Part shown: positions 1 to 32,455 of the stretch, piece after piece
Layout: each line of letters begins with the position of its first letter
How positions within the stretch are numbered: position 1 is the stretch's first letter
Virus record (IMG/VR): IMGVR_UViG_2531839532_000012
Span: 1 to 32,455 of that record
Length of the DNA stretch: 32,455 nucleotides
Direction: 5' to 3' (one strand)
Source: a virus
Lineage: Duplodnaviria > Heunggongvirae > Uroviricota > Caudoviricetes
Program-made: the position numbers and the translations under genes
The notes under the pieces: generated by a model
The model's input: only the letters and a program-made list of their open reading frames with translations
What the model was told of the DNA's origin: nothing
Database searches by the model: none

Positions 1-84
1 ATGGCGGGTTATTTGTCCTGGTTATTCCCCCGTTGTAAAATCTCTCCTAAACTTAACGGTACGGCACCACACTTCGGGGATGAA

Positions 85-276
85 ATGTTCGCGCTGGTAC
101 TTTTTGTTTGCTACCTGGATGGCGGTTGTGAAGATATTGTTGTGGATGTCTACAACACGGAACAGCAGTGTCTTTATTCTATGAGCGATCAACGGATCCG
201 CCAGGGCGGTTGTTTTCCGATTGAGGATTTTATAGATGGTTTCTGGCGACCTGCACAGGAGTACGGTGATTTTTAA
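85..276 (+). CDS. yebW: Small conserved host protein (YebW-like, 63 aa); chromosomal flank
   Basis: ATG at 85 with GGGGA upstream, stop TAA 274-276. Translation MFALVLFVCYLDGG...AQEYGDF matches YebW from memory. Convergent with pphA. Confidence 0.55.
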   Translation: MFALVLFVCYLDGGCEDIVVDVYNTEQQCLYSMSDQRIRQGGCFPIEDFIDGFWRPAQEYGDF

Positions 277-933
277 TTATTGCAATTGCACAAGAGTCAG
301 TTCGCCCCCAAAGACAGCACCGGTATCAATATAATGCAGGTTGCCAATATCCACGCGATGTCGCAACGGTGTATGACCAAACCAGAAATGATCAGCCCCT
401 GTAATTCCCTGCCCTTTTTGGCGTTCACCTAATCGCGAGCGGCTCCACAAGACCTGATGCAAATCAACGTCCTTTTGCCATTCATAAACATCATCTGGAT
501 AATCGGCATGAGCAATAACATGCTTGCTGGTGCGACTGTGTACTTCAAGAATAAAGGGCAAATGCTGACATTTTTCCAGCGCCGTTTTCGCTTGTTTCTG
601 TTGATTATCTGCCAGCGCAATAAACCAGTCGCCGCCATTCATCAACCACAAAGACATCTGCTGGGATGCCAGCGCATCCATCGCCATCTGTTCATGATTG
701 CCTCTTACCGCACAAACCCAATGTTGTTCCAGTAACTGCAGACAACGTAAACTTTGCGGCCCACGATCGATAACGTCTCCCACTGAGATAAGTAAATCTC
801 GCCACGGATCAAAACGACAATGCCATAATTTGCGGCGCAACTGCTCAAGACAACCGTGTATATCGCCAGAAAGCCAGATATGTCGCCATTGATGACCCGC
901 AATTCTCTGATAAACGGGCGCAGGCTGTTTCAT
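277..933 (-). CDS. pphA: Serine/threonine protein phosphatase 1 (PrpA/PphA), 218 aa
   Basis: ORF MKQPAPVYQRIAGHQW...GDIHGC...GNHE carries metallophosphatase motifs. Second ATG (933) chosen, preceded by GGGAGG. Host gene of normal GC content. Confidence 0.85.
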   Translation of the reverse strand: MKQPAPVYQRIAGHQWRHIWLSGDIHGCLEQLRRKLWHCRFDPWRDLLISVGDVIDRGPQSLRCLQLLEQHWVCAVRGNHEQMAMDALASQQMSLWLMNGGDWFIALADNQQKQAKTALEKCQHLPFILEVHSRTSKHVIAHADYPDDVYEWQKDVDLHQVLWSRSRLGERQKGQGITGADHFWFGHTPLRHRVDIGNLHYIDTGAVFGGELTLVQLQ

Positions 934-1066
934 CAATATTTTCCTCCCGCGCTAAAGATCACATAATCTTAACAAGAATGTTAAAAAACGCTGGACTCAG
1001 ACAGTAGAGTGTGTGTTATGGTTGACTATAAAGTCAGCGAAGGAAATGCTTCTGGCTTTTAACAGA

Positions 1067-1094
1067 TAAAAAGAGACCGAACACGATTCCTGTT
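1067..1094 (-). ncRNA. sdsR: 3'-terminal fragment of sRNA SdsR (RyeB): loop, 3' stem and U-tail only; body replaced by prophage DNA
   Basis: Plus strand aaaaagagaccgaacacgattcctg is the reverse complement of the recalled SdsR 3' end (CAGGAAUCGUAUUCGGUCUCUUUUU) with one mismatch. Similarity is lost immediately beyond it. Confidence 0.4.
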
Positions 1095-1397
1095 TTCGCC
1101 AACAAATAACAAAATCTTTTAGAATTAATGTGTTAAATAAATTCATGCTCATCTTTTAATCCCTAACACATACCATTACATATTAATACATTCAATTAGT
1201 TACCATTTTTTTCGAGTTTTTTAGAGAAATTTTCGGGAATATTTCAGGTCAATCCATGCATACACAAGCAATTCCTGTATTGAATAATTCCGTAGCAATT
1301 ATGTAAAATCATCTCCGGCTGATTTTCATTCAAACTCGCGCTATCGAACGTCCATCAGCCAGCCGTGGCACGTTCTTGCATACGACATGCTACGGTT

Positions 1398-1952
1398 TCA
1401 TTTATCTCCCACCGGAAACCTCTTATACAAAGTCGATATGCCAACATCATAGATGATCGCTACCTTCAGGCGAGGAACTCCTGATGCAATTAATCGTCCG
1501 GCCTGTGCCCATTGTTCTGGTGTAAGTTTGGGACGACGTCCACCAATTCGTCCCTGTGCGCGAGCAGCTTCCAGTCCAGCTTTTGTTCGTTCAACAATCA
1601 GTTCTCGTTCCATTTCAGCCAGGGCCCCCATCACATGAAAGAAAAAACGCCCCATCGGTGTGCTGGTATCAATAGCATCCGTCAGGCTGCGAAAATTAAC
1701 GCCACGTTCGCGCAACTCCTCAACCAGAATGACCAGATGCCGCATACTACGCCCCAGCCGATCCAGCTTCCAGACAACCAGAGTGCCCCCTGCCGATAAT
1801 GTCCTGAGCAGTTTTTTCAGTCCCGGCCTTTCGGACTTTGTACCGCTTATCTTGTCTTCAAAAATCAGCTCGCATCCTGCACAGTTCAACGCATTACGTT
1901 GTAGATCGGTATTCTGGTCATTTGTTGATACGCGTACATAGCCAATAAGCAT
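1398..1952 (-). CDS. pin: Serine-recombinase DNA invertase (Pin/Gin/Hin/Cin family), 184 aa
   Basis: N-terminus MLIGYVRVSTNDQNTDLQRNAL with catalytic Ser, and C-terminal HTH (GRPPKLT...STLYK). ATG 1952 preceded by GGGAG. The track ORF's 12 extra N-terminal codons were rejected. Confidence 0.9.
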   Translation of the reverse strand: MLIGYVRVSTNDQNTDLQRNALNCAGCELIFEDKISGTKSERPGLKKLLRTLSAGGTLVVWKLDRLGRSMRHLVILVEELRERGVNFRSLTDAIDTSTPMGRFFFHVMGALAEMERELIVERTKAGLEAARAQGRIGGRRPKLTPEQWAQAGRLIASGVPRLKVAIIYDVGISTLYKRFPVGDK

Positions 1953-1978
1953 GGTAGATCTCCCTGACAAAAGCAGGA

Positions 1979-2371
1979 ATGATGCCATTTGCTCGTTATT
2001 TCTGCATTTTCATAAACGTTGGTTTGGGAGAAGCGGCTAAAAGGAATGTAGGGACAGGGGCGAATCAGATACCTGATATGGGTAGCTTCACGCTTTCTGT
2101 TTCAGGTACTGGATATCAAAAATTACCATCAGGTTTTATTCTTCAGTGGGGCTCAATCGGCGCACCAGGCATTGCACAGGATGTAGTAACCCATTTCCCG
2201 ATTGCATTTCCAAACAGATGTCTGCGTGTTTTGGTCTCACAAGACTACACACCAGATAGCGGGGATGTTGGTTATATTGCCTGTGCAGGTTTTAGTCCCG
2301 ACCCGGTTAAATTTATATCCAGAGCCAGTACTCCTGGCCTCGGCGCTTCATTTTTAGCGTTAGGCTGTTAA
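1979..2371 (+). pseudogene. Orphan alternative tail-fibre C-terminal segment (Sv'-like); no own start codon
   Basis: Open frame ...[24 protein letters not shown]... typical of tail-fibre variable parts. It starts inside the crossover site, on the strand opposite the active tail-fibre gene and facing away from pin. Confidence 0.5.
2007..2032. other. Hin/Gin/Pin-type recombination (crossover) site: TTTTCATAAACG-TT-GGTTTGGGAGAA
   Basis: 26-bp imperfect palindrome with AAAC/GGTTT cores around a central TT, 55 bp from the pin start. It lies at the 5' end of the orphan tail-fibre segment, as gix/hix sites do. Confidence 0.5.
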
Positions 2372-2392
2372 TTTAGCTATATGGAGTTAAAA

Positions 2393-2614
2393 ATGAATTA
2401 CATATATTCCGCGACTACAAACTCTTTCTATCCGCTGGAGATGAAAGAGGATTACACTCAAGCTGACTCATGGCCAGATGATGCTGTTGAAGTGCAACTG
2501 GCACATGCCAACGGCGGATCTGTGCGTGGGATTTACAACCATGCTCAGTATCTTGATAAACGCAGAGAAATGATGCAGTGGTGGGCGGATTGGCTTGATG
2601 AAAAGGTGGAGTGA
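2393..2614 (+). CDS. Tail-fibre assembly (Tfa)-like protein, probably truncated (73 aa)
   Basis: GGAG then ATG 2393. N-terminus MNYIYSATTNSFYPLEMKEDY...DDAVEV resembles Tfa N-termini, but the protein ends after 73 aa where the AT-rich island begins. Confidence 0.4.
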   Translation: MNYIYSATTNSFYPLEMKEDYTQADSWPDDAVEVQLAHANGGSVRGIYNHAQYLDKRREMMQWWADWLDEKVE

Positions 2615-3003
2615 TCCACCTTAACCACTATCGAATAGAACAAAGCCTTGCAATCCAGTGCAAAGCTTTGTGTGTATGAGTTTTTTCTCACATCACCAGG
2701 CAATCATCAAACTCCGTATTCCTGGCGTCATTAATTATGTAAGTGATCACCACGAATATAGCCAGTGCAGAACTGTAACCATCATCATCTTCTGGCAGCG
2801 CTTCCCTTCTCCCGTTATCCAGATTAACCGGGTGGTGCTGAGGATGAGTCCGATATCGCTTGATCCTGAATTCCACATCTATAGCAAAGCGGAAGGATGT
2901 CTCAATGTCGTGGACACACAGTGTTACAGCCACAAATCTATAGCCTAAGAAAGGTTTATTTTGTAATTAAAGAAGATTTTAAAAACCAGATTACTCATTC
3001 ATA

Positions 3004-3032
3004 TAGACACCAATCCCCTACAGTCATAAAAT
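3004..3032 (+). promoter_or_regulatory. Candidate sigma70 promoter for the acyltransferase (TAGACA-N17-TAAAAT)
   Basis: Hexamers read directly in AT-rich DNA about 45 bp upstream of the ATG at 3075. Unverified. Confidence 0.3.
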
Positions 3033-3074
3033 GCCTCTTTTGAATTGCTTTATCTTCATAACAAGAGGTTATTG

Positions 3075-4150
3075 ATGCTTCGCCACTTAACAGGACTCAG
3101 ATTTATAGCTGCATTAATGGTTTATTTATGCCATTTAAATACAGACTATTTTGGTGTTTTTGTAAAAGAAATGTTTTCCCAGGGATTTATTGGCGTTTCC
3201 TTTTTCTTTATTTTATCTGGCTTCATTCTTTCATATTCATATGAAGACAAGCTAAAAAATGAAGTAACAAGTAAAAGACAGTTTATTCTTTTAAGATTGG
3301 CAAGAATTGTTCCAATGCATCTATTATTAGCCATGCCATTTATTTTACTAACCATTCACTTAAAGAACTTTGATTTTTCAAAAACCTTAACAAATATTTT
3401 ATTAATGCAAAGTTGGATACCAAAGGAGGATTACTACTTCTCATTAAATGGTGTATCATGGTCTTTGTCTGATGAGCTGTTTTTTTATTTAATGTTTATT
3501 CCGTTGATTTATACATCAATTACAAAGAAAGTAATCACTGCAATATCAATTATAACTCTACTATTAACTATATATTTTTTAAAAATTATACAAACAGAAG
3601 AACTTAATCACTGGTTATATTATATATTCCCAGTAAGCCGCTTGGTAGAATTTATTTGCGGCATGATTATTTACGCTTGCTGGAAAAACAGCCGACAGCA
3701 GACAGTCGACAGTCGACAGTCGACAGTCGACAGTCGACAGTCGACAGTCGACAGTCGACAGTCGACAGCCTTTTGTTTTTAATTTCACTATTACCTCTGC
3801 TAATAGCTATATATTATAGCAACAACATAAATAATAGTCTACGTTATTCGTTATATTATTTACTCCCCATGGTAATATTCTTTACTTCATGCATCTATCT
3901 AAGAAATGGAGTCATTCATACTATCCTCAGTTCAAAAACCCTAGAGCTATTAGGGAAATCATCATTTATTTTTTATTTAATTCATCAACCCATTATATTA
4001 TTTTGCTTTAAAATCTTTGGACATAACCCCGGACCACTCTATTTAATAGCGCTCCTTGTTATAATAACCATAGTCTCAATCATACTTTATAAATTAGTTG
4101 AGGAGCCTTTAGAGCTGATGCTAAGAAAACGAATTTTAGCAGTAAAATAA
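3075..4150 (+). pseudogene. Acyltransferase-3 family membrane protein (O-acetyltransferase-like), split by frameshift at a heptamer repeat
   Basis: AAGAGG then ATG 3075. N-terminus MLRHLTGLRFIAALMVYLCHL fits acyltransferase_3 proteins and the product is multi-pass hydrophobic. Frame 1 stops at 3782; a second frame continues from the repeat to 4150. Low GC. Confidence 0.7.
3701..3763. repeat. Perfect tandem heptanucleotide repeat (GACAGTC) x9, with degenerate copies at 3694-3700 and 3764-3770
   Basis: Counted directly in the sequence. The unit contains a SalI site (GTCGAC). It sits inside the acyltransferase coding region. Confidence 0.95.
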
Positions 4151-4152
4151 AT

Positions 4153-4178
4153 AAAACCGCGCTATTGCGCGGTTTTAT
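4153..4178. terminator. Bidirectional rho-independent terminator (AAAACCGCGC-tatt-GCGCGGTTTT)
   Basis: Perfect GC-rich hairpin flanked by A-run and T-run, between the convergent acyltransferase gene and the tail-fibre operon. Confidence 0.55.
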
Positions 4179-4341
4179 CTTCAGGCTTGATGAATTTTTT
4201 ACCGTCATATGACCAGCCAATACCAACATCTCCAACACATTTAACTATATCCGCTTTTTCTGGCTTAAACTCTGACTTACCACCCCATACAACAAGATTT
4301 GTAACGACACCATTTTGTACGACTGCATAAATATCGCTCAT
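4162..4341 (-). CDS. Small protein (59 aa) translationally coupled to the tail-fibre gene; possible fibre chaperone
   Basis: ATG overlaps the tail-fibre TAA stop (TAATG). MSDIYAVVQNGVVTNLVVWGG.... Function not recognised. Confidence 0.45.
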   Translation of the reverse strand: MSDIYAVVQNGVVTNLVVWGGKSEFKPEKADIVKCVGDVGIGWSYDGKKFIKPEDKTAQ

Positions 4342-5489
4342 TACTGATACTCCCACACAAGAATATATCCATGATTTCCATTATTTCCTGTCGCTGGGCC
4401 TGATGACGCCTTATTGTATTTCCCTGTCCCGCCAATACCGTATGTCCCAAGCATAGTAGTGGTTATACTTTCAACGCCAATCGCCTGATCATCACCAAAT
4501 CCAAGTGCCCCACATAAATTTGATCGTGAAACTGAATGGAACAGAATCCCTTGCCCTGTAGGAATTGGTGCTTCTGTTGCACTTCCCCCTGAAAATGGAG
4601 GTACCTGCTGAACTTGAGTTGATCCCCTTCCTCCCGGGCATACAAGCAAATCACCAAAGCTTGTATTCCCGCCGTCCCCTCCAGAGCCTCCTGGTCCTGT
4701 TCCTGCTACACCACCGCTTCCAATAGTTACTTGCACGGATTCAGGTATAGACTGATAAAAAAATGCTTTAGCATATGCCCCGTTGGAACCGGCAGCACTT
4801 ACACCACAGTTATTTGAGGCTGTTGCTGATAAATTGCCACTGGCACCACCACCGCCAACGGCTTCCACTATAATTTTCGTTACACCAGGTGATTTGTGAT
4901 AAGTCCCAGATGATCCAAATACCTGAACCCCCAAAAGCCTTCCTGTTCCATCACCAAGTGTTAAATATTGTAGAGTTTCCGATACGTTTTTTTTACTTAA
5001 AATTTCCCTACCATTTCGAGTCAGCGCTGTCATATCCATTGTTCCAGCACCTGTAAAAAATGCCAGCCCATCCGGTATTCCTGTTAAGCTCGACAATGAT
5101 GTCAGATTATCATTTTTATCCTGTTTATCATTCAGAATGTCTGTCATTCCCAGGTTTTCGAGAGCCGTTTGCACAGTGCCATCCGATTTGATATCACCAA
5201 ACGGATTCTTGCGGCTCAGGTATTCAACAGCAAACCCCGATCCCAGCAATTCAACAAAACCGGGCAGATCACCATTATCAAGCACATCCCGTTGCGTTTT
5301 GTCACTTACAAACTGGGCCAGAGCTGCAGCAATAAAGCTGGCCTGCCGAATAACCTTATTGACTTGCGCACTGGATGCTTTCCCTGCTGTAAATCCGGAT
5401 AAAAGCGCAGGCAACGCTTCCCATTCCTCCTGCGACATAACATTGGCATTCCGATCCGTTGCAAACGCTTTAAAGTCATTTTTCGCCAT
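4341..5489 (-). CDS. Phage tail-fibre protein (382 aa from ATG 5489; alternative ATG at 5507)
   Basis: Central motif TALTRNGREILSKKNVSETLQYL resembles the conserved region of lambda Stf and P2 H fibres. Gly-rich C-terminal tip. GC content drops 3' of about 5150. Confidence 0.65.
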   Translation of the reverse strand: MAKNDFKAFATDRNANVMSQEEWEALPALLSGFTAGKASSAQVNKVIRQASFIAAALAQFVSDKTQRDVLDNGDLPGFVELLGSGFAVEYLSRKNPFGDIKSDGTVQTALENLGMTDILNDKQDKNDNLTSLSSLTGIPDGLAFFTGAGTMDMTALTRNGREILSKKNVSETLQYLTLGDGTGRLLGVQVFGSSGTYHKSPGVTKIIVEAVGGGGASGNLSATASNNCGVSAAGSNGAYAKAFFYQSIPESVQVTIGSGGVAGTGPGGSGGDGGNTSFGDLLVCPGGRGSTQVQQVPPFSGGSATEAPIPTGQGILFHSVSRSNLCGALGFGDDQAIGVESITTTMLGTYGIGGTGKYNKASSGPATGNNGNHGYILVWEYQ

Positions 5490-5628
5490 CAGAGTAATAC
5501 TCCCCATGCCCCTACATCAAAACCACTGATGAATTCGTTATCCATATCAAAACCAAAAAATTTTGAACCTTCCGATGGAGTTTCCACCGAAGGTGTTTCA
5601 ATGCCACCCGCCCATACCCCGGCGGCTT

Positions 5629-6000
5629 TTACTGTGAGATAATGGTCATGTAACGCCTGACGCCATTAACGGCCAGCGTTCCGGCACGGTTGAGTGCACT
5701 TTCTGCTCCCGCAGCATTACCATCAAGTGCAGCCTGCGCCGCGGCTTTAAGCTGCGGCACCGTCTGCTCTTCTGCCGATTTAACGCCGGGGACCAGGTGA
5801 GGTCGTGGCGGGATGTTCTGCTCTGGTGAGCCGTATTCGTTGAGGTAACCGATGCCCGCATTACCAAACGGAACATCATCCCGTTCGCTGTCTTCCGAAG
5901 GGATGCCGACCAGCACATCTTTTTTGGTTAACGACCTGAGCGCATCCAGAATGGCCTTAGCGTTATCCACCCTCGTTGTTACACCGCTTTTGAAACTCAT
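5629..6000 (-). CDS. Hypothetical phage structural-module protein (123 aa)
   Basis: ATG overlaps the upstream stop (ATGA). Lies in the head gene cluster. Family not recognised. Confidence 0.5.
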
Positions 6001-6404
6001 AGCTGGCGACCGCCTGCACCGAACATCGTGATCAACTGATAAAATTCAGCGCCATATCGGGTGTTATTCCAGAAACCTGCATCAGGATTCAGCGTCGCGC
6101 TGGTGTCATAGCTGACGCTTACCTTATCCACGGACTTTGAGGACTGAACACCATTGGTTGAACCGCCCGGACCCCCAGCCAGCATCGCTCTGCTGTCAGC
6201 CGCCCAGAGCGTCATGTAGTGAGCAACGAACAACCCGGCAAAGTACGGAAACAACTTTTTGCCGGTGACATTTTCGCTCAGCAGTTCATCGGCCAGATTC
6301 AGACGGAACCCGATTTGGGCGTCGGGATATTTTGCCGGGTCAGCAAACTGCGGGAAGTCGCGGCGAAAATCACTTACCGCTGGCAGACTTTGATTCTTTG
6401 ACAT
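5997..6404 (-). CDS. Phage protein, DUF4054-like (135 aa)
   Basis: Start [13 protein letters not shown] chosen by context. Overlaps the upstream gene by 35 nt. Family assignment from memory only. Confidence 0.45.
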
Positions 6405-6738
6405 CTTTAGCCCCATTACCGCCAGTCCGGGCGGCAGTAATCTGCGCCTGCAGGCTGTCGTTCTGCTCCTGCAGTTTGAGCAATGCATCTTTAAGATCGG
6501 CAATCAGCTTATCTTTGTCGGCAATCTGCGCTTGCAGGCCGTCGATAATGGGTTGCAGATCATCGGTGTCGCTAATCACGCTTTCGGAAAGCTCAGAGTG
6601 CGCCTGGGTGAACCAGTGCGACGCGACCTCTTCCGGTACGTTATGCCGTCCCCGGCCAAACTCCTGTTTTGACTGATCGCCGAGCGTCAGCGTAAACGGG
6701 GTGTGAACATGGATGGTAACCAGCTTTTCTTTCGCCAT
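6370..6738 (-). CDS. Hypothetical coiled-coil phage protein (122 aa)
   Basis: AGGAA then ATG 6738 ([12 protein letters not shown]...). The track ORF's N-terminal extension overlaps the capsid gene and was rejected. Confidence 0.55.
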
Positions 6739-6752
6739 TTCAGTTTCCTTCA

Positions 6753-6768
6753 GGCCCCTTTCGGGGCC
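6753..6768 (-). other. Intercistronic GC hairpin with GNRA loop (GGCCCC-GAAA-GGGGCC) just after the capsid gene
   Basis: Perfect 6-bp all-GC stem, 10 nt after the capsid stop. No U-run follows. Confidence 0.4.
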
Positions 6769-6778
6769 ATTCTGGTTA

Positions 6779-7720
6779 TCAGATACCGTCCACATAGGAC
6801 AGAGTTTCTTTATACACTGGCTCGACTGCACCCAGCTTGCCGTAGTAAGTGACGATCTGATACAGGCCGCGATACTGCACCGGCACGCTCTGAAGCGGAA
6901 CCAGCGGGTAGCGGACGTATTTTTTATCGTTGGTGTACGCAACCATGCGATCCTTATTCCCCACACCACGGCCTTTCAGCCATTTAACCGCGCGGATATT
7001 CAGCGGAACACCGTTCTGGTGATAGCTGATGGTGTTGGTCTGAAGGTACGTCAACAGGGACTGGTTACCCGCAGATGAAACGATGATGCTGGACAACAGA
7101 GCAAACTGTTCAGGCGGGATCAGCAAATCACGCGGGACCACAGAGTAACCAGAAGCGGCCCACGCATCAGACAGCACCTGGTTAATGCTTGCGCGGATTT
7201 CGTCCGGTGTTGAGGTTGCCCACGTTTTGGCAGCGTTGTTGACAGGCACGCCGTCCAGGGTAACAAGGCCTTTCAGGTTTAATGCGGAATCGCCAACATA
7301 TACCTGTTCATCGTTATCCATCTGCCATTTCAGTTGCATCCCGTCATACTTCTGCGTATCAATCGGGCGGCCGACCTGCTGAGCAGCCTGCAATTCTATG
7401 ACCGTCCAGCCAAGTTCCATCCCCCACAGGTTCAGCGGGTTACCGGATTTGCCGGTATCCACGTTCACGCCAGCAATAGCGGTTGAGTCTTTGCCTACCC
7501 AGTTTTTGCCATTCGGATTTGCACCAGTACCCGCAGCGGCGAAGCTGGTATTCGTCCAGCTGGAAATGTCATCTGCGATAGAGACATCTTCACGCAACTG
7601 AATATCGCGGGTCCAGGTGTACCCCACCAGTGGCAGGTTCAGCGTCTGGTCGAGTCGCTCCAGCTCCCCGATGAGAAAGGCACCAGAGCTGTCAACGGTT
7701 GCCTGATCAAAAGTAATCAT
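6779..7720 (-). CDS. Major capsid protein (313 aa; DUF2184-type, assigned from memory)
   Basis: AGGAA upstream of ATG 7720. Position after scaffold and decoration-like genes, and size, typical of a major capsid protein. Confidence 0.65.
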   Translation of the reverse strand: MITFDQATVDSSGAFLIGELERLDQTLNLPLVGYTWTRDIQLREDVSIADDISSWTNTSFAAAGTGANPNGKNWVGKDSTAIAGVNVDTGKSGNPLNLWGMELGWTVIELQAAQQVGRPIDTQKYDGMQLKWQMDNDEQVYVGDSALNLKGLVTLDGVPVNNAAKTWATSTPDEIRASINQVLSDAWAASGYSVVPRDLLIPPEQFALLSSIIVSSAGNQSLLTYLQTNTISYHQNGVPLNIRAVKWLKGRGVGNKDRMVAYTNDKKYVRYPLVPLQSVPVQYRGLYQIVTYYGKLGAVEPVYKETLSYVDGI

Positions 7721-7731
7721 TCGTCTGTTCC

Positions 7732-8238
7732 TTAAATCTTCCAGGAAATTTCTGCATTGCCGTTAGCATCACCGGCACCTGTGAATTCAGCGTTGGTCAG
7801 CACCACATTTTTGCCACTGACTGACGTGGACATGAATCCACCCAGCGGCACTTTCATGGATTCATCAGTGGAGACGACAACGTATACCGGGTCGCCTTTT
7901 TTGATAGTGCTGGCATCAAAATCAGAACCGAGATTAACGGTCACGTAGCCACGCTTCATGGCGTCGCCCGGGAAGTTCTTGCCTGTTCCCACCTGGCGAA
8001 CCATGTCCGGCTGCGACGTGGTCGGATAAGGGCGCACGTAGATCCCCTTCACCTTGTCTGCGGTATCACCATCTGCCAGCGGCACGAAAAAACCGTCATC
8101 ATCGTATTTACCAGCCAGCCCATAGGCAGCGAAGGCGTTATCGGATTTAAGGACCACCGGTTCGACGGTTAAGTCCTGCGGGCGAGAGACAGCCCCGGCA
8201 ATACCAACAGGCATCCGGTACAGAAATACATTATTCAT
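7732..8238 (-). CDS. Phage head structural protein (168 aa; decoration/cement-like)
   Basis: ORF with AGGG upstream, between the scaffold and capsid genes. Confidence 0.55.
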   Translation of the reverse strand: MNNVFLYRMPVGIAGAVSRPQDLTVEPVVLKSDNAFAAYGLAGKYDDDGFFVPLADGDTADKVKGIYVRPYPTTSQPDMVRQVGTGKNFPGDAMKRGYVTVNLGSDFDASTIKKGDPVYVVVSTDESMKVPLGGFMSTSVSGKNVVLTNAEFTGAGDANGNAEISWKI

Positions 8239-8241
8239 TTT

Positions 8242-9462
8242 TTACCCTTTACGGTTTGCCCAGAATTCAGCGTTTTGTTTGTTCAGGGAAGCGATACTGG
8301 TCATGCCCATGTTTAGGCGCTGTGCATCGCCGGTGGTGGCGCGGGTGTTTCGCCCTTTGGCAATCTCAGACACGGCATTAAACGCCATGTCGACCGATTG
8401 TTTCGGCAATTTGCGGATATCCGCATCACCAACTATCTGGCGAACCAGCGTTTTGTCAGCGGAAGCCAGAACCTCGCGTTTGAACGCGGTCGGTTTCATC
8501 TTACGGCTCAGATCGATACCCGGAACAATAACTTCGGCACGCCAGGCTGAGTCACCAGTAATCGTGGTTTCCTCTTCATCGTCCTCGCCGTCACCGGTCG
8601 GATTATCGTCAGGCTTATTATCGTTATCGCCCGTGGCATTTCCTTCCAGCTTAGCCAGCAGGGCTTTCAGTAATGTTTTGAGGTCATCATCACTGTCGCC
8701 GGTTGGGCCTCCCCCCATCTCTGGTGCTTTGTCCGGTAGTGGTTGCTGCGGGGACAGGTTGATATTGAGATTAACGCCCTGCGGCAAATCCCCCTCATCT
8801 CCTGTAACCGATGCGGGAGCCGACTCCACCAGTTCGTTCATGGTGTCGGCATCTCCTGTCTTGATGGCCGCACGCATGCGGTTCCACCAGTTTTTCTTTT
8901 GATTTGCCATTGTGTCTCTGTCTCCAATTGCACAACGATTTCCGGCTCTGCCTTTAGGGACAAGAGCCACATGGTTTCCGGTAATATCGACCTGCTCAGC
9001 TTTACCTGGCTCGGTCTGCTCGTACTCCGCGTCATAGCCGCACGACACTTCGCGCAGGCCATCTTCGATAAGCTGAATGGCGTTTTCGTCTTTGACGATA
9101 AGGTCAGCCAGCATCAAATCAGACTGCTCACCCATCCCGCGCCGGACATTCTGGAGGTGCCCGACAGCAAGCTCTTTCCAGTTCTCGGGATTTACCAGCC
9201 GCACATTCCCGTTTTCATCTTCAGGATGCAGAATCGTGATGCTCATCCCTTCGAATGAGGCAAGCGTGGCCGGATGGAATACCTGCTCAGGAGAACGCGT
9301 GACGACTATTTCACCGAACTTATCGGGTTTCAGTTTTGGCAGGTCATCAGCACCATAGAGCTGCTTACCTGTTCGTCCTATCGGCACGTCTCTGCACAGC
9401 AACGAGCCGTCAGCCAGCTGATAGCGGGTTTCCCCCAGCCGGGTATTGAAAAAATATTTCAT
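8242..9462 (-). CDS. Head maturation protease/scaffold-like protein (406 aa; DUF2213-type)
   Basis: N-terminal domain followed by a long acidic low-complexity linker (GDSDDD...GDGEDDEEE) and a C-terminal domain, the layout of protease-scaffold fusions. Confidence 0.6.
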   Translation of the reverse strand: MKYFFNTRLGETRYQLADGSLLCRDVPIGRTGKQLYGADDLPKLKPDKFGEIVVTRSPEQVFHPATLASFEGMSITILHPEDENGNVRLVNPENWKELAVGHLQNVRRGMGEQSDLMLADLIVKDENAIQLIEDGLREVSCGYDAEYEQTEPGKAEQVDITGNHVALVPKGRAGNRCAIGDRDTMANQKKNWWNRMRAAIKTGDADTMNELVESAPASVTGDEGDLPQGVNLNINLSPQQPLPDKAPEMGGGPTGDSDDDLKTLLKALLAKLEGNATGDNDNKPDDNPTGDGEDDEEETTITGDSAWRAEVIVPGIDLSRKMKPTAFKREVLASADKTLVRQIVGDADIRKLPKQSVDMAFNAVSEIAKGRNTRATTGDAQRLNMGMTSIASLNKQNAEFWANRKG

Positions 9463-9476
9463 GTGTTACCTGCGAT

Positions 9477-10250
9477 TCAGGCGGGATAAGATTGGGAGGT
9501 GGGAAAAACGATTTCTTTATAACAGCGACAATTCGGGAGCTCGCCAGCGTGACCTGTCATGCCGTCAAGCGTTGGAGGTTTGCCCCATTCGACAAATTTA
9601 CCTTCCATTTCCCGATGAGAATGCCTGACGTCACCATCTTCGGCTGTACGCCAGATATAACCATTCGAACCAATTGACAGCGCACGCGCCTGATCCAGCG
9701 CGCCGGTTGCACGTCCAAGTTCAGTACGGGCAATCAGGTCAGCTCTGGACTTTGCTATATCACCCGATGCGGCTATTTCTTTAGCAAAATATTCTGCTCT
9801 CCCACCGGTCACAACAGCTTCTGTCGCCCGATTCTGGATGTCGTACACCCTGTCAGCCGCCTCGAGGGGGAGCGATTTGATGTACTTGACCTGTTCGGCG
9901 ATGATGGATTGCATCACCTGGCCCACAGGAGCGCTTTCCACAAGATTGCGGAGCTCGCGACTGATGTTCTTGCTGTGTTGCCGCCAAACTTTCTCGTTCT
10001 GCCGGGTTAGGTCCGCAGTAAAGTTTTCCGCGACCTTTGTCGCCCAGGGGGTGATGATTTCACTGTAGCGTTCCAGCGCCTCAATAATTTCCGTGATACT
10101 GTCATTTGAACCATCGTAGCGACCATTTACGATGTCTCCGACCGCCCGCGCTATCCTGCGTAGGCTGGTTCGATAGCGGATTTCCGCCTGACGGTTCCTG
10201 CGGTTCGTCATCAGATTCGCCGATGCCGGGCGGCGCTTCATCTTCGGCAT
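9477..10250 (-). CDS. Phage head morphogenesis protein (Mu F / SPP1 gp7-like, 257 aa)
   Basis: Position directly after the portal gene. The start is ambiguous because it overlaps the portal 3' end by 110-149 nt. Confidence 0.55.
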   Translation of the reverse strand: MPKMKRRPASANLMTNRRNRQAEIRYRTSLRRIARAVGDIVNGRYDGSNDSITEIIEALERYSEIITPWATKVAENFTADLTRQNEKVWRQHSKNISRELRNLVESAPVGQVMQSIIAEQVKYIKSLPLEAADRVYDIQNRATEAVVTGGRAEYFAKEIAASGDIAKSRADLIARTELGRATGALDQARALSIGSNGYIWRTAEDGDVRHSHREMEGKFVEWGKPPTLDGMTGHAGELPNCRCYKEIVFPTSQSYPA

Positions 10251-11568
10251 TCTCGATGTCCTCGTCGGTAATGGATGCCCCGATGCCGGTTACGTCAGAA
10301 TTTTCGCGCAAATCAGTCATAGCGGCTTTCAGTGTCATCAGACCATCACCCAGCGCCGTACTGATTGCGTTGGTAGTGTTTAACGCCACCGTTGAGCGAT
10401 CGACATCAGACATTTGCCAGAGCGGGTTAAACTCAAACGTGAAATCATCCGGGAGCGGCTTGCCAAGTTCCGAACGATGCATGATGTCCAGTATCCGACG
10501 CACCGGAAGACGTAAACGCCTCTCCTGCAACGAACTGATGCGGTCGTAATAGTTGGCAAGATCTGCATCACCGGTAGAAAATCCTTTCGGGGACTGTCCG
10601 AACAACCGCACCAGTGGAATACCAACAGCGCCACTAATCTGTTCTGCAAACTGCGATAGGATGTCATCCAGACCACTGAAGCTGTACTGATGCGTTTCAA
10701 ACTTATCCCGCGAGTCCATGAGCGTCATGCCTTCATTGCTCTGGAACTGTCGAATCAGGTCGATATTCTTCAGCAACGCTTCATACGCAGGACCACCAAG
10801 TGCGATAAGCTCGCGTAGCTTCTCCACGCTGTAGGTACGCAAATGCGCCTTGTAGACCAGCTGCGCCGCGCCGACAGTAGCGCTGTCGAACGCGGTAAGA
10901 CGATCCCAGATACGCTCTACAACCGACATTCCCCATTCGTTCTCGGTCATCTTCTGCTGAAATGGCAGCGTGACGCCATCAAAGCGAATCAGGCGACTGT
11001 GATGAATGCGCCAGGCAGGAATTCCCGTTGCTGTGGTCACCACATCGTAAAACTCAGGTTTACCCAGGTCCGGCCCCATATCTTTAATGCGGCGGGTCAG
11101 TACCGGGTCGATCATCCAGCGGTCGAGCGGGAGAATCCCCTTAAACTTGCCCTTACAGATGGTTTCGGGTCGCAGCGGGGTCATTGGTGCCTGCCCCTCA
11201 ATCATGATGAAACCCACCGCGCCGCCGTAGAGGCGCGACCATTTCAGCACGTCATTCAGCGCATCCCAGATTTGCAACTCATCCAGTTGTGATTCGAGAA
11301 TGCCACGATCTTTTGCATCAATTTCCGAAGTGATGCGAATGCCTTTGCGGGTCATATCATCCGGGATAGCATCGACTGCTTCACCGATGATCCAGGATGA
11401 ACGATAGGACCATTCCACCAGCATGCGGTTACGACTGGTGAAATTAGCCCGGTAGGTGGATGCTGAGTGCTGGTTAGGTGTCTGCATCCCTACGCGGGCA
11501 ATAAAATTCTCATAACCATCAGCTGTAGCCTGCGCAGTTCGCCGCAGGGCTTGTTTGTTTCGTGCCAT
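10102..11568 (-). CDS. Portal protein (488 aa)
   Basis: ATG overlaps the large-terminase stop (ATGA). Size and position after the large terminase. Confidence 0.7.
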   Translation of the reverse strand: MARNKQALRRTAQATADGYENFIARVGMQTPNQHSASTYRANFTSRNRMLVEWSYRSSWIIGEAVDAIPDDMTRKGIRITSEIDAKDRGILESQLDELQIWDALNDVLKWSRLYGGAVGFIMIEGQAPMTPLRPETICKGKFKGILPLDRWMIDPVLTRRIKDMGPDLGKPEFYDVVTTATGIPAWRIHHSRLIRFDGVTLPFQQKMTENEWGMSVVERIWDRLTAFDSATVGAAQLVYKAHLRTYSVEKLRELIALGGPAYEALLKNIDLIRQFQSNEGMTLMDSRDKFETHQYSFSGLDDILSQFAEQISGAVGIPLVRLFGQSPKGFSTGDADLANYYDRISSLQERRLRLPVRRILDIMHRSELGKPLPDDFTFEFNPLWQMSDVDRSTVALNTTNAISTALGDGLMTLKAAMTDLRENSDVTGIGASITDEDIENAEDEAPPGIGESDDEPQEPSGGNPLSNQPTQDSAGGRRHRKWSLRWFK

Positions 11569-13190
11569 CAGGCCTGTCTCCCTAGCAGCTCCCAGATGTT
11601 CAGGGCTGAATTCATTGGGGCATAGTTGATCATCACCGAGTCGGCAAGGTTTGGCGACCGGGTTCCATCAGGCTGTTTATCAATAACGATTTTTCCCACA
11701 CTATTAATGGAATAGGTCGGCTGCGAAAGCTCGATGATGAGTTTATCTTTGAGTGCCATGCTACTGCTGATTGAGATGATCTCGTCCGGGTTGTAAGCCA
11801 TACCTTCAACCACGGCGCGCCAGGTATTCTGAAAAAGTTTACGTAACCGCCACCAGCTCTGGGCTTTGGCGTTAGCGAAGAAGTCCTTGTTCAGACGTGC
11901 GGCTTGCCCGTTGTCCCCGCGAACAGCTTCATCATCCGGATCAAATACCGCGCCACTACCTCGAAACGGTGTGGCAAGTATTGACGGTCGACGCGCAGCG
12001 TTACGCAGTTCGTTGATAGCGCGTGCATCGCCGCGAACGCCAGCGCCCAGCCCGTCCTCGTCAAAGCGAAACTCTTCGAGGTTGTCCTGTTCGCAAAAGC
12101 CGAAAACCTTCTCAACGGACTGATAAATGTCGCTGCCCACACCGGACCATTCCCGCACATTCTCCAGGAGGAAGCCATGACGGGTGGAAAAGGCATTTTT
12201 GTCCCTGCCTTCGTCGGCGACATCCATCGCGCCAAGTCGTTTGCCTGTTGGCTGGATACCCAGTTTGATATGCGCATCAACTGCAGCCTGTACCCATTCG
12301 GATGGAATCAGGACGCCTTCCGCTGATGCGCTGTAGTTCAGATCAAGTTCCTGTGCCACCACCACCGGATTATCGATTTTCTCGCATTCCCTGCGATACC
12401 ACTCTTCATCCTTGCGAAGATCATCTCGCCAGTGGAATGTGAATACCGGTATCTTCCCGCCATGACGCTTCTGAGCGAACGGGTTCGCCATGCCGTTAAC
12501 TGAACTCAGGTCAATACGGCAACGCGTCGTTTGTGACAACGCCGCATCAATCAGCAGAGGACGCTGAAGGAATGCAGCCTCATCAACCAGATAAAGCGTG
12601 GTACGGTCACCACGACCAATATTATCGCCAGCCTCGCCTTTGATAACGGCACCAGTTTCAGGAAACTCAACACGCATATATGGCGCGTGCTTCTTCTCGC
12701 TCCACGAACCGCGAAACTCTACAGGTAGCGTTTCCACGAACTTGCGCGCCTTCCAGAACAATGCTTTCGGGTCACCAGTGCTGTCGACGTATTCCTCTTT
12801 ACGGGAGCCGAAACCGATAACCATTTCTTTGTTGAAGAGACAAAGCGAGCAGGCCAGTCCGATCGCGGTCCAACTGAGCCCCATTTCACGGGATTTTTCG
12901 GTAATACCATTCTCCCGATTGCTCCAGCGTTCCATAATCCAGTGGATCCACTCCTCCTGCTTAGGGAAGAGTAAAAACGGAATGGTCCCCGGCAGGCCAT
13001 AATCAATATTACGCGGGTCCGTTGTCATGCCCCAGTCGATGATGAACTGAGCCGGATTAGTTCGGTAAAACTGTTTTAGTGCAGGCAATATTTCAGGATT
13101 CTGGCGAATGCGCTGTAGGCGTTCCATCCGCCATTCAAAAACCATCTGGTAATCAGGATGTTTAAAATCGAAGGGGAATGGTAACGGCAT
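11568..13190 (-). CDS. Terminase large subunit (540 aa)
   Basis: N-terminal ATPase region and C-terminal nuclease region (...LYLVDEAAF...). Follows the small subunit by 2 nt. Confidence 0.85.
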
Positions 13191-17510: not shown

Positions 17511-17673
17511 AACGATAACTCCGTACATTTGGACATTATCGCCACCGTCAGGTGCTAATCATCGTGGTGGCGAACTGTGCGGGGTTAGCACTACCGGGTA
17601 CGGAACCCGGCGAGCCTTTCGGCTCCCCCACACAGCCCGCCATAAATCGCGAATGTGACTGTGCAAACGATAT

Positions 17674-17697
17674 GAAAAAAAGACGCGGGCGCGTCTC
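17674..17697 (-). terminator. Rho-independent terminator downstream of the late promoter (tR'-like)
   Basis: Minus strand GAGACGCGCCCGCGTCT followed by TTTTTTT, about 90 nt downstream of the Q stop. Confidence 0.55.
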
Positions 17698-17751
17698 ATA
17701 TCGCTCCGTAAACATCCGGGGTGCTAATCCCGACGCCAGATTTTGCTGGCG

Positions 17752-17790
17752 CGTGAGGAATATAGCCCCGGATAACAGATTGAGTCAACA
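17752..17790 (-). promoter_or_regulatory. Candidate late promoter PR' (TTGACT-N18-TATATT) with adjacent hairpin (possible qut/pause region)
   Basis: Hexamers read on the minus strand overlapping the Q stop codon. Followed by hairpin CGCCAG-caaaat-CTGGCG and then the terminator. Confidence 0.45.
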
Positions 17791-19784: not shown

Positions 19785-19940
19785 TTACTCCTCAGATTCG
19801 TAAGCTGTGAAGACAGCAACCTCCGTCTGGCCGGTACGGATTCGTACCTCGCAGAGGTCTTTCCTCGTTACCAGTGCCGTCACTATGACGGTTAAACAGA
19901 TGACGATCAGGGCGATTAACATCGCCTTTTGCTGCTTCAT
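19785..19940 (-). CDS. hok: Hok/Gef-family type I toxin (51 aa)
   Basis: MKQQKAMLIALIVICLTVIVTALVTRKDLCEVRIRTGQTEVAVFTAYESEE, near-identical to recalled HokD/RelF. SD GGAGAAG. Confidence 0.85.
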   Translation of the reverse strand: MKQQKAMLIALIVICLTVIVTALVTRKDLCEVRIRTGQTEVAVFTAYESEE

Positions 19941-19996
19941 AGCCTGCTTCTCCTTGACCTTTCGGTCCGTAAGAGGCTAATCTCTATGTGTCGCAT
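19937..19996 (-). CDS. mok-like leader ORF (19 aa) whose stop overlaps the hok start
   Basis: ATG 19996, stop TGA overlapping hok ATG (ATGA). Analogous to mok coupling in hok/sok loci. Confidence 0.4.
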   Translation of the reverse strand: MRHIEISLLRTERSRRSRL

Positions 19997-20055
19997 AGAT
20001 ATGGCCTCAGATTAATGTTAAGCGTCTTGCAGGACGCGTAATGTTAACTGGGGCT
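19954..20055 (+). ncRNA. sok: Candidate Sok antisense RNA with promoter (TTGACC-N18-TAATCT), antisense to the hok leader
   Basis: Strong promoter hexamers on the plus strand opposite the hok translation-initiation region. RNA ends are inferred. Confidence 0.4.
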
Positions 20056-20150
20056 TTTCTCTATCTGCCGTTGGTGTTCATGCCCGAGGCAGATAGCCTC
20101 AAGCACCCGCAGCAATTCTACTTAACTCCCGTCACCTCGCCAATATGAAA

Positions 20151-26176: not shown

Positions 26177-26731
26177 GTGAATCGGCGCTTTTTTTAGCAT
26201 CACGTTCATTGAGTAGTGACAAAAACTCATTCTCAGCATTCTCGATTTCCGAGAAAAATTCTTGATGAGTTGTTTCTCGCTGCGATCTGATGCTGAAAGC
26301 TAAAGCAAGTAGCCAGGCTTTGTCTTTATTATCCATCGGAATACCTTATTACTGGTTGTGTGAGAACTCCAGTATACCACCGAGCCTGAAGTGGTAAAAA
26401 GACAGGCGCACAACACGAAGGCGCATTTCCGGTATTCATAAAGAGTCGGTCTTGTCTGTTAAATTTAAATGGTGGGAGTGCGCCTCCGGTTGTAAATAAC
26501 GACATTGCTATGTGTAGTCTTTGGCGGCATCAGTTCTACTCCGTGGCTGCCCTGTCGCCCCTTTTTAAAGTGAATTTTGTGATGCGGTGAATGCGGCTAA
26601 GCGCACGCGGCACAGTTAAAAGCATCAGTGTTATGGGTGGATTATCCGGCGTTAATTGTTAACTGGTTAACGTCACCTGGAGGCACCAGGCACCGCATCG
26701 ACAAAATTCATTTGTAAAAATGGAGATAATT

Positions 26732-31064: not shown

Positions 31065-31259
31065 ATGAGATATGACGATGTTAAACCATGTCCGTTTTGT
31101 GGTTGTCCATCTGTTACGGTGAAAGCAATTTCAGGATATTACCGGGCAAAATGCAACGGATGCGAATCCCGAACTGGCTATGGTGGAAGTGAAAAAGAAG
31201 CACTCGAAAGATGGAATAAACGAACTACTGGAAATAATAATGGAGGTGTTCATGTATAA
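31065..31259 (+). CDS. ralR: RalR/Lar-like restriction-alleviation protein / type I toxin (64 aa)
   Basis: MRYDDVKPCPFCGCPSVTVKAISGYYRAKCNGCESRTGYGG... zinc-finger-like Cys pairs. Matches recalled Rac RalR length and sequence. Confidence 0.55.
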   Translation: MRYDDVKPCPFCGCPSVTVKAISGYYRAKCNGCESRTGYGGSEKEALERWNKRTTGNNNGGVHV

Positions 31260-31440
31260 AATAACTGCCACTATTGAAAAAGAAGGTGGCACTCCTACTA
31301 ACTGGACAAGATATTCAAAATCTAAATTAACGAAATCAGAATGCGAAAAAATGCTCTCAGGGAAAAAAGAAGCAGGCGTGTCCAGAGAGCAGAAAGTAAA
31401 GCTGATAAATTTTAATTGCGAGAAACTTCTGTCCTCGTGA
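31252..31440 (+). CDS. YdaC-like small protein (62 aa)
   Basis: GGAGG 5 nt before an ATG that overlaps the ralR stop. MYKITATIEKEGGTPTNW.... Confidence 0.5.
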   Translation: MYKITATIEKEGGTPTNWTRYSKSKLTKSECEKMLSGKKEAGVSREQKVKLINFNCEKLLSS

Positions 31441-31828: not shown

Positions 31829-32080
31829 AAACTTAACATATCGAAGGAGGGACAAAGCATATTACTGGCGCAACCCTCTGACGAAAGAAGAATTTACACT
31901 AGGTAAAATTTCAAGAAGAGATGCAGTAGCGCAGGCAATTGAAGCAAATCATTATATATACAAAAACTACTCTCCTGCTGCCTTAATTGAAAAACTAAAA
32001 GGGTTCGACTCATTTACTATGGCAGACTGGATTGAACGTTACAAAACGATTCTTATAAGGAGAAAAGTGTCCAGAAATAC
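31794..32080 (+). pseudogene. int: Tyrosine integrase, N-terminal arm-binding domain only; truncated by IS1 after about 95 codons
   Basis: ...NLTYRRRDKAYYWRNPLTKEEFTLGKISRRDAVAQAIEAN aligns with the lambda Int N-terminus. The frame runs into the IS1 terminal repeat at 32081 and stops. Confidence 0.7.
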
Positions 32081-32455
32081 GGTAATGACTCCAACTTATT
32101 GATAGTGTTTTATGTTCAGATAATGCCCGATGACTTTGTCATGCAGCTCCACCGATTTTGAGAACGACAGCGACTTCCGTCCCAGCCGTGCCAGGTGCTG
32201 CCTCAGATTCAGGTTATGCCGCTCAATTCGCTGCGTATATCGCTTGCTGATTACGTGCAGCTTTCCCTTCAGGCGGGATTCATACAGCGGCCAGCCATCC
32301 GTCATCCATATCACCACGTCAAAGGGTGACAGCAGGCTCATAAGATGCCCCAGCGTCGCCATAGTGCGTTCACCGAATACGTGCGCAACAACCGTCTTCC
32401 GGAGCCTGTCATACGCGTAAAACAGCCAGCGCTGGCGCGATTTAGCCCCGACATA
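32081..32455 (-). mobile_element. IS1 insertion sequence (partial; continues beyond window end)
   Basis: Terminal inverted repeat GGTAATGACTCCAACTTATTGATAGTG at 32081, followed by the InsB coding sequence on the minus strand. Confidence 0.85.
32096..32455 (-). CDS. insB: IS1 transposase InsB (C-terminal part; 5' end outside window)
   Basis: ...[16 protein letters not shown]...[88 protein letters not shown]. Confidence 0.8.

Follow-up and report, generated by a model that had tools for sequence, protein, structure and literature searches.

Closest described systems and the window locus

DNA inversion switches of the Mu G/Gin, P1 C/Cin, Salmonella Hin and Pin kind combine a small serine recombinase (~185-190 aa, with a resolvase-type catalytic domain and active-site Ser at the N terminus and an HTH at the C terminus), a Fis-dependent recombinational enhancer in the 5' region of the invertase gene, two inverted 26-bp sites with identical 2-bp cores, paired tip and assembly genes, and a segment found in both orientations; in tail-fiber switches the layout is Sc-[Sv U/U' Sv']-invertase, with Sc the constant N-terminal part of the fiber, Sv and Sv' its variable tips, and U and U' the tail-fiber assembly genes tfa and tfa'. 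The e14 P segment with its invertase PinE was reportedly described by Plasterk and van de Putte in 1985. Lysogenic-conversion modules such as oac of Sf6 and gtr of P22 lie between the tail-fiber or tailspike gene and the int-att end. Here we analyze a Pin-type tail-fiber locus in a 32,455-nt stretch of DNA (IMG/VR record IMGVR_UViG_2531839532_000012; hereafter the window), which is an Escherichia coli prophage integrated between pphA (277-936) and yebY. In its present state the locus does not function like any other system. It is what remains of a Gin/Hin/Cin/Pin family member and very probably an ordinary relic, a dead Pin switch that lost one flip site to the recombined end of an argW/intS-type prophage.

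The e14 P segment with PinE in strain K-12 (PMC12529663; PMC4272514) resembles the window locus in having a ~184-aa invertase beside a tip that starts at the recombination site; 15/16 positions of the published e14 inverted repeat (TTGGTTTGGGAGAAGG; PMC12529663) agree with the inner half and core of the window's site (TTGGTTTGGGAGAAG), and both prophages are defective. Where e14 carries an inverted pair of sites and its inversion is measurable, the window shows a single full site with a half-site, lacks a second tfa or Sv, and gives no indication of inverting. Direct relatives are the switches of DUF2612-baseplate myovirus prophages (ETEC-2264/E2980, BH100/BH100N, DEC5E and CM2010-0578/1; phages such as vB_EcoM-611R5), some at the same pphA site, whose pin, complete site, gp53-like tip, tfa' 5' end and Sc are 97-99% identical to those of the window, whereas theirs keep tfa', tfa and Sv, a full second site, the tail module and both orientations. 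With Mu G, P1 C and Hin the locus shares the invertase and, in its ancestral form, the layout, yet it is not a functional member: it has one full site and a half-site instead of two inverted sites, the cores are TT and TG, Sv' is intact while tfa' ends after codon 34 and neither tfa nor Sv is present, and all of the few records (the window source, strain 300709 and IMG/VR contig L016) have the same orientation. Like conversion modules, and like the argW/IntS (CPS-53-type) module, it holds a gene of a donor type in which an AT3-family acyltransferase lies between the fiber gene and intS beside tRNA-Arg; unlike them, the window module is detached from att, 40 codons of the integrase are fused to tfa', and the acyltransferase is frameshifted. 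The parts of the former switch are as follows (window coordinates; strand in parentheses).

1398..1952 (-): pin, serine DNA invertase, 184 aa, open reading frame (ORF) intact; Pfam Resolvase (PF00239) 1.2e-50 and HTH_7 (PF02796) 7.6e-11
2007..2032: site A, complete 26-bp pix-type site, TTTTCATAAACG TT GGTTTGGGAGAA (outer half, core, inner half)
2019..2371 (+): orphan variable tip Sv', gp53-like C-terminal domain, intact and read as unexpressed; Gp53-like_C PF21882 3.7e-15
2393..2493 (+): 5' fragment of tfa' (U'), tail-fiber assembly, 34 codons; 97-99% identical to tfa of L003/L011 up to 2493; phrog_188
4162..4341 (-): small ORF, 59 aa, predicted to be translationally coupled to the fiber gene (TAATG overlap); phrog_14370 1.5e-27, unknown function
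4341..5489 (-): tail-fiber gene; Gly_rich_2 PF21722, tail-fiber PHROGs, and homology limits with L003, L002, L006 and L008
5139..5164: site B relic; the + strand reads GTCTGTCATTCC CA GGTTTTCGAGAG, and a complete version would read CTCTCGAAAACCTTGGTTTGGGAGAA

Intact switches in related prophages

Six intact E. coli loci (L003 and L009-L013) share the layout pin, site A, Sv'-tfa'/tfa-Sv, site B, Sc. All six have two inverted sites with the core TT, the pin-side site reading TTTTCATAAACG TT GGTTTGGGAGAA and the Sc-side site CTCTCGAAAACC TT GGTTT(G/A)GGAGA(A/G). The ETEC-2264 locus (L003) has the order pinE, gp53-like tip, tfa, tfa (-), fiber (-), DUF2612, baseplate J, and matches the window over 1354-2493 at 97% and over 5149-5641 at 99%; nothing between aligns. 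Another intact switch with the same tip (L011) matches the same two intervals at 97-99%, and in DEC5E (L013) and CM2010-0578/1 (L012) an intact switch with a full baseplate module occupies the same pphA locus, matching window positions 1-2080 and 1-2033, respectively, and in both cases 5149-5641. The intact switch works in nature: in the sibling substrains BH100 and BH100N the segment lies in opposite orientations while the encoded proteins are the same, and since an inner-half single-nucleotide polymorphism (GAGAG/GAGAA) changes partner between them, exchange occurs at the central TT.

The original prediction of a fossil switch of the Gin/Pin-type Sc-[Sv U/U' Sv']-invertase organization is borne out by this layout of the intact relatives, as are its calls of a Pin-type invertase at 1398-1952 and of a gix/hix-like 26-bp site at 2007-2032. 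The latter, separated from the pin start by 54 bp, is a perfect pix site. It occurs once in the window (0 expected by chance) and equals the pin-side site of all six intact switches; the pix/gix consensus was derived from the six intact loci and PMC12529663. The ORF annotated at 1979-2371, which begins upstream of site A by chance, had likewise been taken as tail-fiber related, and rightly so. A fusion of Sc and Sv' built from the window sequence is predicted to be in frame, and the same contiguous in-frame Sc+Sv' is found in 17 complete genomes (for example L011, at 99.5%), so the orphan tip of the window is a real alternative tip. The arrangement pin-site-Sv' is found in 147 complete genomes.

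A joint with the end of another prophage

What separates the two intervals shared with the intact switches is a foreign block of ~2.7 kb (2494-5148), which includes the small ORF and the fiber tip and takes the place of the original sequence from tfa' codon 35 to the site B core. Lost in the exchange were tfa and Sv in their entirety, the latter half of tfa', and site B except for its outer half. From 2470 to 5641 the window is collinear at 98% with two pin-less prophages integrated at argW (L002 and L008), in which the order is tRNA-Arg, intS, S24 peptidase fragment, acyltransferase, 180-bp ORF, fiber, DUF2612. The left part of the block contains the following features.

2487..2493: recombination joint, 7-nt microhomology TTGAAGT, from a three-way alignment of the window, L003 and L002
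2494..2614 (+): 3' fragment of intS, the last 40 codons of an argW IntS-type tyrosine integrase, in frame with tfa'; PRK09692 (NCBIfam) positions 350-393/413
2688..2933 (-): UmuD/HumD-like S24 peptidase fragment, a pseudogene without its N terminus; HumD (NCBIfam) 4e-23, positions 65-129/129

The joint lies inside a 24-nt patch (2470-2493) in which tfa (WPDDAVEV) and intS (WPADAIEV) are identical at 20/24 positions (83%), and it turns the ORF at 2393-2614 into a 73-aa chimera of tfa residues 1-34 followed by integrase profile positions 350-393/413. Both parents are complete elsewhere (tfa, 146 aa; intS, 385 aa), and because fragments of the two meet in one window ORF, the window is the recombinant, derived form. 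The integrase part is 98% identical to the intS 3' end that adjoins tRNA-Arg in L002 and L008; instead of a complete ~385-413-aa protein with its catalytic domain beside a tRNA att, only this C terminus is present, with no tRNA nearby. Reading 2393-2614 as a truncated Tfa-like gene was thus correct for codons 1-34, the remainder being the C terminus of an IntS-type integrase.

The window derives from a draft contig (AQED01000116.1; assembly GCA_000356145.2) and ends in IS1, and a misassembled, chimeric joint might be suspected on those grounds. However, strain 300709 (NZ_CP025903.1; closed genome, 99.8-99.9% identical to the window), the one of 5,426 complete genomes with a tfa::intS joint, has it at 100% identity over 269 nt, and so does a third record from another genome, IMG/VR contig L016 (IMGVR_UViG_2531839530_000005, contig 1535-12517), contain the joint. 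It is therefore not an assembly artifact, an explanation to which we give practically no credence. L016 has the same site A and half-site relic and retains the DUF2612, baseplate J and spike genes as well as an intact acyltransferase, which places the joint before the other lesions. A recombinant phage with this joint may once have been viable, or may still be complete in the L016 host; a search of the phage collection found no sequenced phage with the chimeric architecture.

The same comparison bears on the proposal that a roughly 1.6-kb AT-rich acyltransferase island was inserted between the convergent gene pairs of an ancestral segment that may still invert. An AT-rich acyltransferase does sit between convergent 3' ends, and Pin and site A are intact, but pin-less prophages carry the small ORF and fiber tip in collinear arrangement with the acyltransferase and the intS end, the supposed island is bordered on its left by a piece of integrase fused to tfa', the active side lacks the expected tfa and Sv, and site B has a different core and no inner half. 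We consider this course of events very unlikely. What survives of it is that foreign AT-rich DNA disrupted the segment, by a replacement of ~2.7 kb and not by a central insertion; the fiber tip and small gene, taken to be the ancestral partner of the orphan tip, arrived with the acyltransferase as one collinear block.

Mu-like (YmfQ/StfP) prophages integrated elsewhere (L006 and L007) terminate in the same cassette, S24 fragment through Gly-rich tip, which is joined there inside a conserved block corresponding to 5165-5216. The S24 pseudogene, named "S24 family peptidase, incomplete" by the Prokaryotic Genome Annotation Pipeline (PGAP) in L001, L002 and L006-L008, is found with the cassette in all contexts analyzed, be they argW-type, Mu-like or pin-chimera prophages, and is an older scar pointing to a common origin of the cassette.

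The fiber gene and its exchange seam

In the window's fiber gene, Sc (5153-5489) is common to the invertible switches, and from ~5131 down to 4341 follows a non-invertible glycine-rich tip. Tip and small ORF co-occur in 12/12 genomes; these are 12 of 5,426 complete genomes, and 7 of them also carry this acyltransferase. The original prediction of an active fiber at 4341-5489 with a coupled gene at 4162-4341 holds as far as the ORFs, which overlap as TAATG, are concerned; the prophage that would use the fiber is without tail and baseplate genes. The Gly-rich tip is joined to three different N-terminal modules (the DUF2612-type Sc, a Mu-like StfP, and an unrelated N terminus in TW10590), with seams at ~5216, 5149 and 5131 (window 5132-5216; L006 6484-6547; L008 6589-6689). 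A conserved "DIKSDGTVQTALENLG" block and the pix site mark the zone of exchange, and 21 nt (5132-5152) separate the core from the shared tip module. Capture of the Gly-rich tip by Pin at a pseudo-site, suggested by a 7/12 inner-half match, was considered as a further possibility, with those 21 nt intervening and a conserved Gly codon accounting for part of the match.

Half of a second site

Homology between the window and the intact switches ends at 5149, at the core of site B. The outer half of the relic, GGTTTTCGAGAG (5153-5164), is perfect, being identical to that of the Sc-side site of the intact switches. Its core, read in the outer-to-inner sense, is TG versus TT in site A, and its inner half matches TTCTCCCAAACC at 7/12 positions, two of the 5/12 mismatches hitting the AAAC tract, which never varies among the half-sites of the six intact loci. 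Because the pin-less argW prophage L002 and also L006 carry this relic, it is older than the tfa::intS joint. In the half-site dimer scan it was the second-best 26-mer of the window, above all 20 shuffles, a rank that is partly by construction, its own outer half being among the reference half-sites; the homology limits weigh more. The candidate partner at 5139-5164 is accordingly a real remnant, as had been suggested, though half a site only.

A further site was sought in several ways. Nowhere in the 32-kb window was there a second match to site A with <=3 mismatches, to the e14 repeat with <=3 mismatches, or to the motif AAACC-N3-GGTTT; generic inverted repeats over 1300-6000 were at chance level; and the dimer scan, which ran every half-site variant seen in the six intact loci against the whole window and against shuffles, returned the 5139-5164 relic alone. 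No second site with a matching core emerged.

Might Pin nevertheless recombine site A with 5139-5164 at a low rate, joining Sc to the gp53-like tip and flipping the acyltransferase? The rank of the relic in the scan, its perfect outer half and the in-frame fusion predicted for the product are consistent with such a noncanonical switch. Set against it are the inner-half mismatches, two of them in the invariant AAAC tract, and the unequal cores: one altered base pair in the core is enough to stop Hin from ligating in the inverted orientation (PMC4817059). Given that rule, the TG core and the poor inner arm, no productive inversion is predicted. The inverted junction expected from the two sites, TTCATAAACGT(T/G)GGAATGACAG, was absent from metagenome, genome and viral collections, a weak negative; the parental joint, searched in the viral collection only, occurred there once. 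In 3/3 records the orientation is the parental one. We rate a rare noncanonical inversion as very unlikely, a shade below the inserted island. By analogy with the known switches, the Pin switch of the window should be locked and canonical inversion should be impossible; the inversion that had been thought possibly to remain is not to be expected.

The invertase and possible action in trans

Residues 1-181 of Pin align to the Mu Gin crystal structures (3UJ3/4M6F; E=6e-92), and Ser9, in VRVSTNDQ, is kept, as in the serine recombinases of the Hin/Gin/Cin/Pin switches. The pin ORF is intact in 3/3 records of the chimeric architecture. Over pin and its upstream spacer (1398-2033) the window differs from 300709 at two positions, 1786 and 1788 (Pin codons 55-56), where two private substitutions produce a run of C and change Asp56 to Gly (D56G). 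Asp56 is conserved in Gin (3UJ3) and gamma-delta resolvase, and Asp is also found in 300709 and L016; the change was judged against Pin of six other loci. Over 1700-2033, the pin 5' region, there are 3 differences from DEC5E (L013) and 9 from BH100N (L010), whose switch inverts.

An intact pin raises the alternative, compatible with a fossil at the site itself, that the enzyme is kept for action in trans on the segments of other prophages or on incoming phage DNA. PinQ and PinE both act on the e14 P segment, blocking phage T2 (PMC12529663), so that cross-action within the Pin family and a defense phenotype of inversion have precedent, and site A nearly equals the e14 repeat. Yet at megablast sensitivity nothing else in 300709 matches pin, Sv' or Sc, the window copy carries D56G at a conserved residue, and the prophage is visibly decaying; we regard retention for action in trans as unlikely. 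Pin, site A and the silent tip might, by analogy, also form a half-switch that acts in trans with the pix site of a co-resident or superinfecting relative, an idea we rate as rather improbable, below retention in trans as such. If it were true, the stored tip could be donated or the fiber gene of the other phage scrambled, which would make the locus a tip reservoir or a defense element and would explain why pin, site and tip are intact amid the decay of the prophage.

A probable route to a locked switch

Returning to the relic of a dead Pin switch, which we favor, the ancestor would have been a working switch of the Mu G/e14 P kind, with pin, site A, [Sv'(gp53-like)-tfa'/tfa-Sv], site B and Sc. 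An argW/intS-type relative with the same Sc and structural genes would then have recombined in, replacing tfa' codon 35 to the site B core; the incoming DNA would have been its att-proximal end, with the intS 3' end, the UmuD-like relic, the AT3 O-acetyltransferase, the small ORF and the fixed Gly-rich tip. The left crossover would have used the 7-nt microhomology TTGAAGT (2487-2493), and for the right one ordinary homology in Sc or beyond would have sufficed. Left behind would be Pin, one complete site and an intact but unexpressible tip, facing a mismatched half-site and thereby locked. Later came a 10.8-kb deletion of the tail module, shared with 300709, and, in the window assembly alone, a heptamer expansion, D56G and an IS1 insertion. 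The comparisons show the homology limits, joints and sites, inversion of the intact relatives and the order in which the lesions arose; the kind of recombination and the inability to invert we infer. The exchange would have been one between phage and prophage; phage recombinases such as RecE/RecT and the Rad52 family make mosaics with defective prophages on short, diverged homology (PMC3945230), and RecE/RecT are encoded in the window, a Rad52-family protein in an argW-type relative. An intrachromosomal deletion between a pphA and an argW prophage was considered and set aside, since two such prophages would be direct repeats ~0.5 Mb apart and the chromosome between them is retained.

Several points weigh against this account. 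With 7 nt, the exact microhomology falls well short of the lengths over which phage recombinases are discussed to pair; the right-hand crossover could lie anywhere in Sc or beyond; and either an infecting phage or a co-resident prophage may have been the donor. The chimeric architecture is known from three records only, and one orientation in 3 records is weak evidence, intact switches being skewed too (147 versus 17 genomes). That the switch is locked would follow from the site sequence and from rules for Hin and Gin, not for Pin.

The acyltransferase cargo

The remaining features of the block belong to the acyltransferase and its surroundings.

3004..3032 (+): promoter-like site TAGACA-17-TAAAAT upstream of the acyltransferase, a consensus match alone
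3075..4150 (+): AT3-family O-acetyltransferase-like gene, GC ~0.28, frameshifted; PF01757 on both halves
3688..3768: heptamer tract in the acyltransferase; TRF reports 11.6 copies of a 7-nt unit, ~9.7 copies in the GACAGTC register
4149..4180: G+C-rich hairpin between the convergent acyltransferase and small ORF, terminator-like on the - strand

The GC content of the acyltransferase region is 0.26-0.30 versus 0.42-0.55 in the flanks. An intact copy of the gene (339 aa, 1020 bp) is found in 7 complete genomes and in L016; it matches phrog_3333 (O-acetyltransferase, 2e-50) and phrog_6705, both family-level names, and the protein is 35% identical to the O-acetyltransferase of phage TL-2011b. Conversion genes of the AT3 (PF01757) class encode one membrane protein of ~330-370 aa spanned by the domain, for acetylating O-antigen or another surface glycan. 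The cargo looks, by its sequence and gene order, like a standard AT3 lysogenic-conversion module, in the donor at the usual place between the fiber gene and int/att. That the block carries an acyltransferase gene had been recognized; in the window it is present as two ORFs, 3075-3782 and 3773-4150, which cover PF01757 positions 4-207 and 217-325 of 326. The heptamer tract has ~1.7 copies in all 7 complete genomes and in L016; the window has an additional 56 nt, which causes the frameshift, and the frame could be restored by gain of one heptamer unit or loss of two. No other expanded tract was found in metagenome, viral or genome collections. The tract could be a newly born hypermutable one or a draft-assembly error, both the heptamer expansion and Pin D56G being known from the draft assembly alone. 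A general contingency locus was considered as well and dropped, the short in-frame form being present in 7/7 complete genomes and L016.

Decay of the prophage

The PGAP annotation of 300709, which already labels each piece of the locus correctly, places pin at one prophage end and the prophage's own xis/int adjoining yebY, and lists a Rac-like early region (recE, recT, ralR, kilR), lambdoid lysis genes and a head module; sheath, tube, tape-measure and baseplate genes are absent from it. The locus is the pin-proximal end of a decaying prophage of lambdoid/myovirus type. At a joint at 5640/5641 with a 2-nt overlap, placed by the BLAST limits, ~10.8 kb is gone relative to an intact relative (L005/L002), from inside a neck/tail-completion gene to just upstream of the fiber gene, and with it the head-tail adaptor, neck terminator, sheath, tube, chaperone, tape measure and baseplate genes. 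What is left of the neck/tail-completion gene at the joint is listed here.

5629..6000 (-): truncated neck/tail-completion gene, 123-aa fragment; phrog_222 positions 109-228/276

This deletion is common to the window and 300709. Private to the window assembly are the acyltransferase heptamer expansion, Pin D56G and the IS1 in the prophage integrase: the last 375 bases (32081-32455) are an IS1 end inside the prophage's own tyrosine integrase (ORF from 31794; break at 32080/32081), which is of a different type from IntS and an uninterrupted 358-aa gene in 300709. Elsewhere in the prophage, Rfam matches at gathering thresholds occur at 17563-17765, 19938-20108, 26509-26560 and 31258-31436, the RNAs named being C4 antisense RNA with a1/b1 targets and isrK, sok (adjoining hokD), DicF, and RalA (the RalR antitoxin).

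Implications

The locus is of modest importance and makes no open question in the field testable; its value is as a base-resolved example of a programmed tail-fiber inversion switch dying. A single microhomology joint with the integrase end of another prophage would have cost the switch a half-site and a core and locked the phage on a fixed Gly-rich tip, and that tip arrived together with an acyltransferase predicted to modify the cell surface. For annotation, a "pinE + gp53-like" pair does not imply a phase-variable locus. The locus further shows the conserved block and the crossover site at the Sc/Sv boundary serving as a seam at which tips pass between unrelated prophage backbones.

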